Shown here piece by piece: positions 1 through 327 of a stretch of DNA of 327 nucleotides (within the stretch, counting starts at the first letter, position 1; each line of letters begins with the position of its first letter). Position numbers and translations under genes: made by a program. Origin of the DNA: Escherichia coli (GTDB lineage Bacteria; Pseudomonadota; Gammaproteobacteria; Enterobacterales; Enterobacteriaceae); NCBI RefSeq assembly GCF_003334355.1, contig NZ_QOWP01000115.1; one strand, given 5' to 3'. The notes under the pieces are model-generated. The model saw nothing but the letters and a program-made list of their open reading frames with translations, was not told the origin of the DNA and ran no database searches.

Positions 1-327
1 TTCAACGGGCGGCCTGACTGCACCATCTCTCCACAGGCAAGAACGGCGTGCCCCGCCGCTAAAATGTTACGAGCGCCGTTTACATCGGCGTTCGCTGTAT
101 ATCCACATACCTGGCATCTGAATTTACTTTGTGACAGGCGGTTCTCTTTCGCTGTATGACCACAGTACGCGCAACGCTGGCTTGTATACGCTGGCGGAAC
201 AGCAAGCACCTGACCGCCACGCCAGAGCTGCTTGTACTCAAGCTGGCGGTGCATTTCATACCAGCCCTGATCCAGTATCGAACGGTTTAAACCTGATTTT
301 GCCCGGACATTGCGCCCCGGCTGGCTG
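1..327 (-). CDS. tnpB: Partial CDS, truncated at both window edges: C-terminal region of a TnpB-type RNA-guided endonuclease (IS200/IS605- or IS607-family accessory protein OrfB). Complete codons span 3-326.
   Basis: Seen in sequence: the reverse-complement frame starting at + strand 326 reads 108 codons with no stop, while the other two minus-strand frames and all three plus-strand frames contain stops. The translation has the TnpB hallmarks in the family order: GW..L.YK, then [11 protein letters not shown], a second C..CG, then the [14 protein letters not shown] RuvC-III motif. Codon usage looks enterobacterial. From unverified memory it closely resembles the E. coli IS609 TnpB (insQ/ydcM-like); this needs a BLAST check. 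Confidence 0.9.
63..92 (-). other. RuvC-III catalytic motif of TnpB ([10 protein letters not shown]), conserved Asp codon (gat) at + strand 84-86
   Basis: Seen in sequence: the reverse complement of 63-92 reads aac gcc gat gta aac ggc gct cgt aac att, i.e. [10 protein letters not shown]. Established knowledge: the third RuvC catalytic residue of TnpB/Cas12 is an Asp in an N-A-D-x-N-(A/G)-A-x-N-I context just downstream of the zinc finger. Confidence 0.8.
105..173 (-). other. Zinc-finger (zinc-ribbon) motif of TnpB, C-x2-C-x15-C-x2-C (CAYCGH ... CQVCGY), all four Cys codons intact
   Basis: Seen in sequence: Cys codons at + strand 171-173, 162-164, 114-116 and 105-107 (minus-strand tgc, tgt, tgc, tgt). 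Established knowledge: TnpB and Cas12 proteins carry a CxxC...CxxC zinc finger inserted between RuvC-II and RuvC-III. Confidence 0.8.

Follow-up and report, generated by a model that had tools for sequence, protein, structure and literature searches.

A 327-nucleotide (nt) stretch of Escherichia coli DNA (contig NZ_QOWP01000115.1 of assembly GCF_003334355.1), here called the window and always meant at its full length, carries on its minus strand the 3' part of insQ, the tnpB gene of a chromosomal IS609-type element of the IS200/IS605 group. From position 1 to about position 60–80 of the same strand, the window very probably (we put the probability at about 85%) also contains the 5' portion of an omega RNA scaffold, belonging to a copy of the element that is inserted at the stop codon of the host gene ydcO. 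By all features that can be tested in silico, the locus is an IS200/IS605 TnpB omega RNA locus: the predicted RNA runs in the tnpB sense, overlaps the 3' end of the gene and ends at the right end (RE) of the element, the adjoining TnpB has the D-E-D catalytic residues and the TNB domain, the structure covaries, and a guide derived from the flank follows at the DNA level. The anatomy and boundaries of the scaffold and the conservation of its structure were observed, as was an RNA-level constraint within the coding sequence, and the production and activity of the RNA are discussed as proposals.

The window is 100% identical to several strains, in which insQ is annotated as an 'RNA-guided endonuclease InsQ/TnpB family protein', and one of the identical loci, L001 (NZ_CP028769), was used as the reference; window position equals L001 position minus 3000. 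The K-12 sequence is 99.3% identical in this region. The minus strand is a single open reading frame (ORF) over the whole window (codons 326–324 down to 5–3), and its translation contains CAYCGH and matches Pfam PF07282 (Cas12f1-like TNB domain, E = 4e-24), which belongs to the TnpB C-terminus. Full-length InsQ (402 amino acids) aligns end to end with the solved structures of ISDra2 TnpB (E = 1e-55) and keeps the RuvC triad D183, E267 and D363 as well as the CxxC pairs at 334 and 353. D183 and E267 are encoded upstream of the window; the codons of C334 (173–171), C337 (164–162), C353 (116–114), C356 (107–105) and D363 (86–84) lie within it. The plus-strand ORFs of the window are 31–44 amino acids long and antisense to this well-supported gene. 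In the L001 neighbourhood a divergent tnpA pseudogene stands upstream of insQ, and ydcO converges on the insQ 3' end. Copies related to insQ are present in 4902 of 5426 complete E. coli genomes, at 95–100% identity in most and at no more than seven places per genome.

The element ends a short distance to the left of the window. Past window position 1 the insQ frame reads ...KQEPTEMIQATA*, with the stop codon TGA at L001 2966–2964 (35–37 nt left of position 1), and the right end, ...GGAGGAUGUCAA, has its last base at L001 2921, 80 nt left of position 1. The boundary was located with a query across the putative RE and the ydcO flank, searched against the collection of 5426 complete E. coli genomes. 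Copies elsewhere (yfeD, hslO, yfaV, plasmids) match this query only to position 180/181 and element-free genomes only from 181; this switch and the comparison of occupied and empty junctions therefore set the element end at L001 2921. The copies at yfeD, hslO and yfaV are alike up to ...GGAGGATGTCAA and then diverge, the four loci differing after ...GTCAA, and relatives in Salmonella (94% identity), Klebsiella (83%) and Aeromonas (68%) terminate at the identical base. With a slash marking the junction, the sequence reads GCGCTTTTTAT/TATCGGTTTCTGTCAGCG at the empty ydcO site; where the element is present it reads ...TTTAT/CCGGTGCGCCGTAAAACCCCATCCTTCAGGGCGGGGATATAAGG at the left and ...TCCACGTCCTTCAGGGCGTGGAGGATGTCAA/TATCGGTTTC... 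at the right, and no target duplication is seen. The target or transposon-adjacent motif (TAM), TTTAT, adjoins the left end at L001 and at two further copies (L003 and L005), and likewise in mini-elements from other phyla. The guide-equivalent, about 16 nt of ydcO-flank sequence (UAUCGGUUUCUGUCAG, L001 2920–2905), directly follows the element end; at the DNA level, TAM plus guide equals the empty (donor-joint) site TTTAT/TATCGGTTTCTGTCAG, beginning TTTAT/TATCGG.... Hairpins are present at both ends (CCCCGUCC-UUCA-GGGCGGGG at the left, UCCACGUCC-UUCA-GGGCGUGGA at the right), and these, together with the missing target duplication, the insertion 3' of TTTAT and the divergent tnpA pseudogene, are the marks of the IS605 group (IS609). 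A first-pass annotation, made from the letters of the window, had noted that the frame is still open at position 3 and had placed the stop codon, RE and guide outside the window, where all three were indeed found; of the roughly 300 nt of leftward sequence that it had suggested obtaining to look for the stop codon, the RE hairpins and the element boundary, about 100 nt proved enough to reveal the stop, a subterminal RE hairpin and a sharp end.

The conserved scaffold was delineated by comparison with relatives. One genome per species was scanned for a pattern consisting of the invariant, mostly single-stranded blocks GCAGGAACC and GGAGGATGTCAA, separated by a gap of 52–82 nt. At least 120 stretches from many phyla were obtained; in 81 of the 120 matches listed, a TnpB homolog (29–88% identical to InsQ) ends just upstream on the same strand, and most of the others lie at contig ends. 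A structure-agnostic MAFFT alignment (A2) was made from 54 representatives less than 85% identical together with E. coli and Klebsiella, and comprised 55 sequences once L061, a chance pattern match with no TnpB, hairpin or GGAAUC block, had been removed. RNAalifold returned two helices from A2, both rich in compensatory changes: one is the RE hairpin, the other a small hairpin that lies far upstream. A five-helix model on the same alignment has 84% of cells paired, compared with 40–47% when the partners are slid by 1–3 columns, and a covariation score of 0.381, compared with at most 0.108 for the slid versions; none of 500 shuffles reached the observed score. For a nested core of 18 pairs plus a four-pair pseudoknot the paired fractions are 92% and, slid, 40–54%, and across the MAFFT-based models the covariation score is 0.37–0.38 against at most 0.11 in controls. 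Compared with 200 dinucleotide shuffles, the 180 nt that end at the boundary fold more stably (z = −3.1).

A covariance-model search, which the first-pass annotation had named as a check, pointed the same way. The model (R1, 172 positions) was built from 44 relatives, E. coli and Enterobacterales-type sequences being left out, and it matches the extended locus over its full length (L001 2921–3081, 138.1 bits, E ~ 1e-40), a score as high as that of plainly intact relatives. On the bare window it matches positions 1–81 of the minus strand with model positions 1–84 (52.2 bits, E ~ 9e-15), the match being cut by the window edge on the RNA 3' side; Rfam searched with the window alone gave only a chance-level match to UPD-PKib (E = 10). 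The extended anatomy bears out the earlier expectation of an omega RNA scaffold that would run in the tnpB sense from within the last part of the coding sequence and has only its 5' part in the left ~100 nt of the window. The accompanying statement, by which the greater part is found past the left edge, holds only marginally: it is right for the conserved core, counted from the first hairpin up to the element end (138 nt, of which 58 nt or 42% lie in the window and 80 nt or 58% outside) and wrong for a 206-nt scaffold from the literature, of which 38% would lie outside.

Where the first-pass annotation had seen no diagnostic structure in the window, the alignment places the small upstream hairpin, with its covarying pairs, at window 44–58. 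It consists of a 5' arm at 58–54 (CGGCG), a loop at 53–49 (GGGCA) and a 3' arm at 48–44 (CGCCG), and is also present in the minimum-free-energy (MFE) fold, with its arms lengthened to 60–54 and 48–42. Double changes are seen at all five pairs (e.g. CG/AU/GC and GC/AU/CG/UA), with pairing in 88% of the cells. The hairpin falls within the codons A-A-G-H-A-V (window 59–42), and its closing pair, 54/48, links the third positions of codon 2 (Ala/Arg) and codon 4 (His/Tyr), at both of which the change is synonymous. Among 31 informative sequences this pair is G..C in 16, A..U in 15 and mixed in none (Fisher p ~ 3e-9, uncorrected for phylogeny), and both states are found in each of three amino-acid backgrounds. 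At the inner pairs, Ala(GCN)..Ala(GCC) switches jointly to Arg(CGN)..Arg(CGC) in the residues around Gly-His. An RNA-level constraint acts inside the tnpB coding sequence at window 44–58, and some of the amino acids are set by the needs of the RNA stem, because synonymous coupling combined with joint Ala/Arg switching cannot be yielded by a protein-only account. At window 42–59, standard dN/dS (nonsynonymous to synonymous rates) or codon analyses of TnpB C-termini would be misled.

Such a protein-only account would hold that the hairpin mirrors nothing but the conservation of the TnpB residues NILAAGHA, which directly follow RuvC-III. In its favour, the region is coding, model positions 1–23 look like plain protein conservation, and a GCC..GGC complementarity at window ~69–95 is indeed explicable by Ala and Gly codons; it shows only wobble changes and was not counted as RNA structure. 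For the hairpin itself, however, the account is hardly tenable. It is largely refuted by the synonymous pair 54/48, which always co-changes, and it is further opposed by the Ala..Ala to Arg..Arg switch, by the retention of the hairpin in mini-elements that have no tnpB ORF, and by ISDra2, in whose solved structure the equivalent region is visible as RNA scaffold (PMC10097598). A long-range helix between window 45–52 and the tail, which RNAalifold had proposed from 12 sequences, was given up: with 55 sequences it became the local hairpin and a loop–tail pseudoknot.

These tnpB-less mini-elements were found in metagenome-assembled genomes (MAGs) of Chlamydiales (L019, ~4454–4760, minus strand), Gammaproteobacteria (L120, ~10800–11107, plus strand) and Gracilibacteria (L040, ~950–1190, minus strand). 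These miniature, non-autonomous elements come from three distant lineages. Each has TTTAT, a left-end hairpin, a short spacer and a scaffold that starts about 10–20 nt before the 5' hairpin and extends as far as the RE; next to it stands a flank-derived guide of its own. Because their scaffolds begin just upstream of the hairpin, the 5' limit of the conserved core is independently supported. Remnants that are RE-only, or in which the left end and the RE are fused, were seen on an E. coli IncY plasmid (NZ_CP023961, L013 500–639) and a Moellerella plasmid (L014 448–607); they keep the last ~120–140 nt of the scaffold, in which the stems have decayed and the tail has mutated (to GGAUGCCAA in L013), and still score 60–65 bits with R1.

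Hairpins near the ends of such elements can also act as single-stranded DNA, and it might be argued that the structures described here are made for TnpA at the right end and not as RNA. Barabas and co-workers (2008) reportedly found that the TnpA of IS608 recognises, on the top strand, the subterminal hairpin and, 5' of the foot of this hairpin, a guide tetranucleotide, as well as TCAA as the cleavage site. Following this paradigm, a DNA role is certainly also true of the terminal hairpin, the GAAU-like block and TCAA of the present element, which therefore cannot be used as an argument for RNA. The left end has a similar hairpin, which gives a weak R1 match (L003 895–968, plus strand, model positions 90–162, 21 bits) because the left-end and right-end hairpins are near-identical (CGUCCUUCAGGGCG), as is expected for IS200/IS605 ends. 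The TnpA of IS608 or ISDra2 needs only a few tens of nucleotides of the right end, however, and the window hairpin lies 124–138 nt inside the element, far past that length. It also has no counterpart at the left end, and its loop is complementary to the tail, an arrangement known from a pseudoknot in a solved RNA. As an explanation of the window hairpin, a purely DNA-level role is accordingly very unlikely.

The loop of the hairpin, by analogy with ISDra2, is likely to form a pseudoknot with the scaffold tail in the IS609-type clade. Its two variable positions in the clade show only A/G (opposite U) and C/U (opposite G), both wobble-compatible. Across published scaffolds (sequences from Table S3 of PMC12781874) loop and tail change together: GGAAU occurs with GUUC in ISDra2, where the pairing is solved, GGAAC with GUUC in ISBth16, UGAGA with UCUC in SfaTnpB, and GGRCA with UGUC in IS609, ISDge10, ISAam1 and ISAba30-3. 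A substitution test was made by scanning metagenomes for the tail variant GGAGGAUGCCAA, which gave 53 heterogeneous stretches (L135–L187), only 11 of them with a recognisable hairpin. Many elements with the GGAGGAUGCCAA tail have neither the 5' hairpin nor GCCUGUGGAG; since they were retrieved by this pattern, the GCAGGAACC...GGAGGAUGNCAA frame is common to further TnpB clades with different scaffold 5' halves. Several lineages (L010 and L011, both Klebsiella plasmids, and L044, L116, L017, L073 and L114) have a 12–25 nt insertion in the terminal hairpin that lengthens its stem (e.g. CCCCCUCCUGAAUCGCGCAGCGUGAAGGUGGGG), with the tail and the GGAAUCC block unchanged.

The features of the locus are collected in Table 1. 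Between the 5' hairpin and the parts beyond the window lies a large stem, whose closing helix is nearly invariant and therefore uninformative on covariation; the segment at window 32–1 forms a hairpin of variable length in the family (median z −1.8).

Table 1. Coding and RNA features at the insQ locus; bare numbers are window positions, and parts left of the window are given in L001 coordinates.
Feature	Position	Strand	Basis or remark
insQ coding sequence, 3' part	1..327	-	InsQ residues ~283-390 of 402; ORF runs beyond both edges
TnpB zinc-finger (TNB) CxxC pairs and RuvC-III Asp	84..173	-	motif positions in InsQ and codon register
Omega RNA scaffold, 5' part (predicted)	1..81	-	cmsearch with R1; model positions 1-23 are unstructured and may mirror protein conservation only
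5'-most conserved hairpin (equivalent of ISDra2 stem 1)	42..60	-	RNAalifold on MAFFT alignment, 55 sequences
Pseudoknot 5' strand (proposed)	49..52	-	loop GGCA (scaffold -132 to -129) opposite UGUC at L001 2926-2923 (-6 to -3), adjoining the guide
Large stem, 5' strand CCUGU	33..37	-	partner GCAGG at L001 3000-2996, directly outside the window; 95% of cells paired
Large stem interior: GGAG...UGAA kink-turn-like internal loop and variable apical hairpin (~27-4)	1..32	-	sub-threshold RAGATH-18 alignment (25.4 bits) and MFE fold; weakly supported
AA-CC	L001 2995-2992	-	CC pairs with GG at 2954-2953
Middle hairpin containing the insQ stop codon	L001 2980-2963	-	
RE hairpin, UUCA tetraloop	L001 2951-2930	-	
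Tail GGAUGUCAA	L001 2929-2921	-	

Taken together, these parts outline an RNA in the tnpB sense whose core would begin with the 5-bp hairpin at window 58–44, continue through the kink-turn-like large stem (5' strand at 37–33) and, beyond the window, comprise the CC..GG helix, the stop-codon middle hairpin, the RE hairpin and the tail GGAUGUCAA before passing into the guide UAUCGGUUUCUGUCAG. Pairing of the loop GGCA (window 52–49) with the tail UGUC would bring the 5' end of the scaffold beside the guide, as in the ISDra2 complex. The RNA is probably made through 5' processing of the tnpB mRNA, a route by which the omega RNA of this family, also called right-end-element RNA (reRNA), arises at least in part and in dependence on TnpB (PMC10278001), and which fits with the minus-strand scan, where no promoter-like site was found. 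InsQ would then bind the scaffold, and the resulting ribonucleoprotein (RNP) would cut DNA that carries TTTAT and a match to the guide, that is, the empty ydcO site left as a donor joint after loss of the element. Cutting of this joint would favour retention of the element, in keeping with TnpB RNPs that cleave the TAM-plus-guide donor joint after excision and so promote retention (PMC10055086).

Several observations weigh against this picture. The tnpA at L001 has an internal stop and has lost its C-terminus, and the retention function may therefore be moot at the ydcO locus. The E. coli copies have GGGAUCC in place of the clade consensus GGAAUCC and an extra mismatch in the CC..GG helix, the scan for promoter- and terminator-like sites found none on the minus strand, and one assay showed no activity for the TnpB of the related IS608 (Meers et al., PMC10055086). 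The interior of the E. coli large stem, folded alone, is no better than shuffles (z = +0.25). In the pseudoknot substitution test, a tail U(−4) changed to C was accompanied by the compensating G in 4 of 11 cases, compared with 17 of 46 with the canonical tail, and thus with no enrichment in this heterogeneous set. Finally, a permissive Rfam search of the extended locus places HgcC, sot0042 and RAGATH-18, all described as tnpB-linked 3'-end or guide RNAs (PMC4615843; PMC11061315), together on the minus strand at L001 2911–3091, but their scores are below the gathering thresholds (RF00062 HgcC, 22.2 versus 50; RF02656 sot0042, 18.9 versus 88; RF03064 RAGATH-18, 25.4 versus 44.9), and for this reason a resemblance and no membership in the three families is claimed.

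The defective tnpA, the departures from the clade consensus, the scan without a promoter-like site and the inactivity of IS608 TnpB would all suit a relic, that is, a scaffold inherited from an active IS609 ancestor whose RNA is no longer made, or no longer functions, at a tnpA-defective locus. We consider this unlikely, yet it is the alternative that deserves to be taken most seriously. It sits poorly with an insQ that is a full-length ORF of 402 codons with intact catalytic triad and zinc finger, with a locus score of 138 bits that is level with intact relatives, and with a hairpin, loop and tail that are all canonical in this copy; the high identity of the element in most E. coli genomes, in up to seven places per genome, and the sense-overlapping transcript reported in K-12 (PMC4615843) also speak against it. 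The anatomy of the scaffold is compatible with the relic, which would leave the encoded content of the sequence unchanged.

The tnpA gene is annotated as a pseudogene or as partial beside each chromosomal E. coli copy examined (L001 4242–4604; L003 and L005 996–1421; L004 1224–1421), insQ being intact, and in L004 the left end is apparently gone altogether. At L001 the insertion lies within the ydcO stop codon (L001 2920–2926, 75–81 nt left of window position 1; empty site, L002 394–406). It turns the end of ydcO from ...CGA TAA into ...CGA TAT TGA, which extends YdcO by one Tyr, the new stop using the TCA of the transposon terminal GTCAA. The predicted guide UAUCGGUUUCUGUCAG (L001 2905–2920) is antisense to the last codons of the ydcO mRNA, as would be any run-through of the omega RNA. 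The insQ–ydcO junction was detected in 3265 of the 5426 complete genomes; other genomes have the empty site and with it a perfect TTTAT-plus-guide target for the predicted RNP of the locus. One might suppose that the host keeps insQ and its omega RNA at ydcO as an allele-specific nuclease against incoming empty-site DNA, or that ydcO is regulated by the antisense guide or by run-through. We regard this as improbable. The fixed guide and TTTAT do match the empty ydcO allele of about 40% of E. coli genomes, against which InsQ would act as a drive or a barrier; under either supposition the RNA would have been exapted for a host role.

A guide-RNA scaffold inside the 3' end of tnpB is a well-known arrangement and is already known in kind. 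It is not new, since sense-overlapping transcripts in K-12 (PMC4615843) and a predicted IS609 scaffold (PMC12781874) have been published. What is added here is modest: the exact boundary and TAM at the locus, a covarying 5' hairpin with its imprint on the codons, and a RAGATH-18-like module in an IS605-type scaffold. The hairpin loop as the likely partner of the tail in a pseudoknot is a further detail for a widespread TnpB clade. The last ~140 nt of IS609-type tnpB would do double duty as protein code and guide-RNA scaffold, which matters mainly for correct annotation; selection at the RNA level should be reckoned with when variants there are interpreted, when codon usage or dN/dS is analysed and when gene boundaries are called. 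The details could aid the design of minimal scaffolds for IS609/ISAba30-type editors and leave the established picture of TnpB unchanged.

One of the closest known systems is the reRNA of ISDra2 from Deinococcus radiodurans (8H1J, 8EXA and 8BF8; Nakagawa et al. 2023). Its 116-nt scaffold has four stems and a pseudoknot, in which tail positions −6 to −2 pair with the loop of the stem nearest the 5' end (−102 to −106); the stretch from −231 to −117 can be dispensed with, and the scaffold shares its sequence with the codons for the disordered C-terminal tail of TnpB (PMC10097598). The predicted E. coli RNA likewise overlaps the tnpB 3' end, ends at the right end and passes into a flank-derived guide. 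It has the same order of parts (a 5' stem-loop with a pseudoknot partner, a short long-range helix, a middle hairpin, a terminal hairpin with a UUNA tetraloop and a ..UCAA tail), a predicted pseudoknot between tail positions −6 to −3 and the 5' loop, and an overlap with a non-essential C-terminal tail of the protein. The two differ in the length of the core (~138 versus 116 nt), in a kink-turn-like large stem, extra in the E. coli clade, that follows the 5' hairpin and precedes the CC..GG helix, in the loop (5 nt, GGRCA in the E. coli clade, versus 19 nt), in the tail (UGUCAA versus GUUCAA) and in the TAM (TTTAT versus TTGAT). They differ, too, in that the E. coli RNA is a prediction from sequence, whereas that of ISDra2 is seen in cryo-EM structures.

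Another is the predicted IS609 omega RNA scaffold of PMC12781874 (NAR 2026, Table S3), 206 nt long and with TAM TTAT, which belongs to a 94%-identical ortholog. It covers the same region, from the equivalent of window 127 to ...GGAGGAUGUCAA, and the ISAba30-1, ISAba30-2 and ISAba30-3 scaffolds of the same paper have the hairpin, GCCUGUGAAG...GCAGGAACC and the tail in common with the present locus. That IS609 scaffold was predicted by analogy, with its 5' end unmapped, and the hairpin, pseudoknot and covariation are not described in the paper. An IS609-type TnpB was purified and assayed in the 2026 screen.

The sotRNAs of Gomes-Filho et al. (2015) are sense-overlapping RNAs at the 3' end of IS1341-type tnpB, with E. 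coli K-12 among the bacterial examples (PMC4615843). The present RNA resembles the sotRNA and HgcC models (RF02656 and RF00062) in its right-end hairpin with a UUCA tetraloop and in the GGAGGAxGUCA tail of the HgcC consensus, but the models derive from archaea and represent chiefly the 3' half of the RNA, and the matches here are sub-threshold. With RAGATH-18 (RF03064) the likeness lies in the large stem (CCUGUGGAG ... UGAAGCAGGAA, window 1–37 plus L001 2994–3000), which agrees with the closing helix and internal loop at nearly every position that is conserved there; here the apical part is far shorter, and the module, with its sub-threshold score, belongs to an IS200/IS605 element and is embedded in the coding part of its tnpB. 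RAGATH-18 itself has been identified by Ren et al. (2024) as the core of the IS607 TnpB reRNA, where it is separate from the coding sequence and co-occurs only with IS607 TnpB (PMC11061315). The fit of the large stem suggests a module common to the IS607 reRNAs and to this IS605-type clade.

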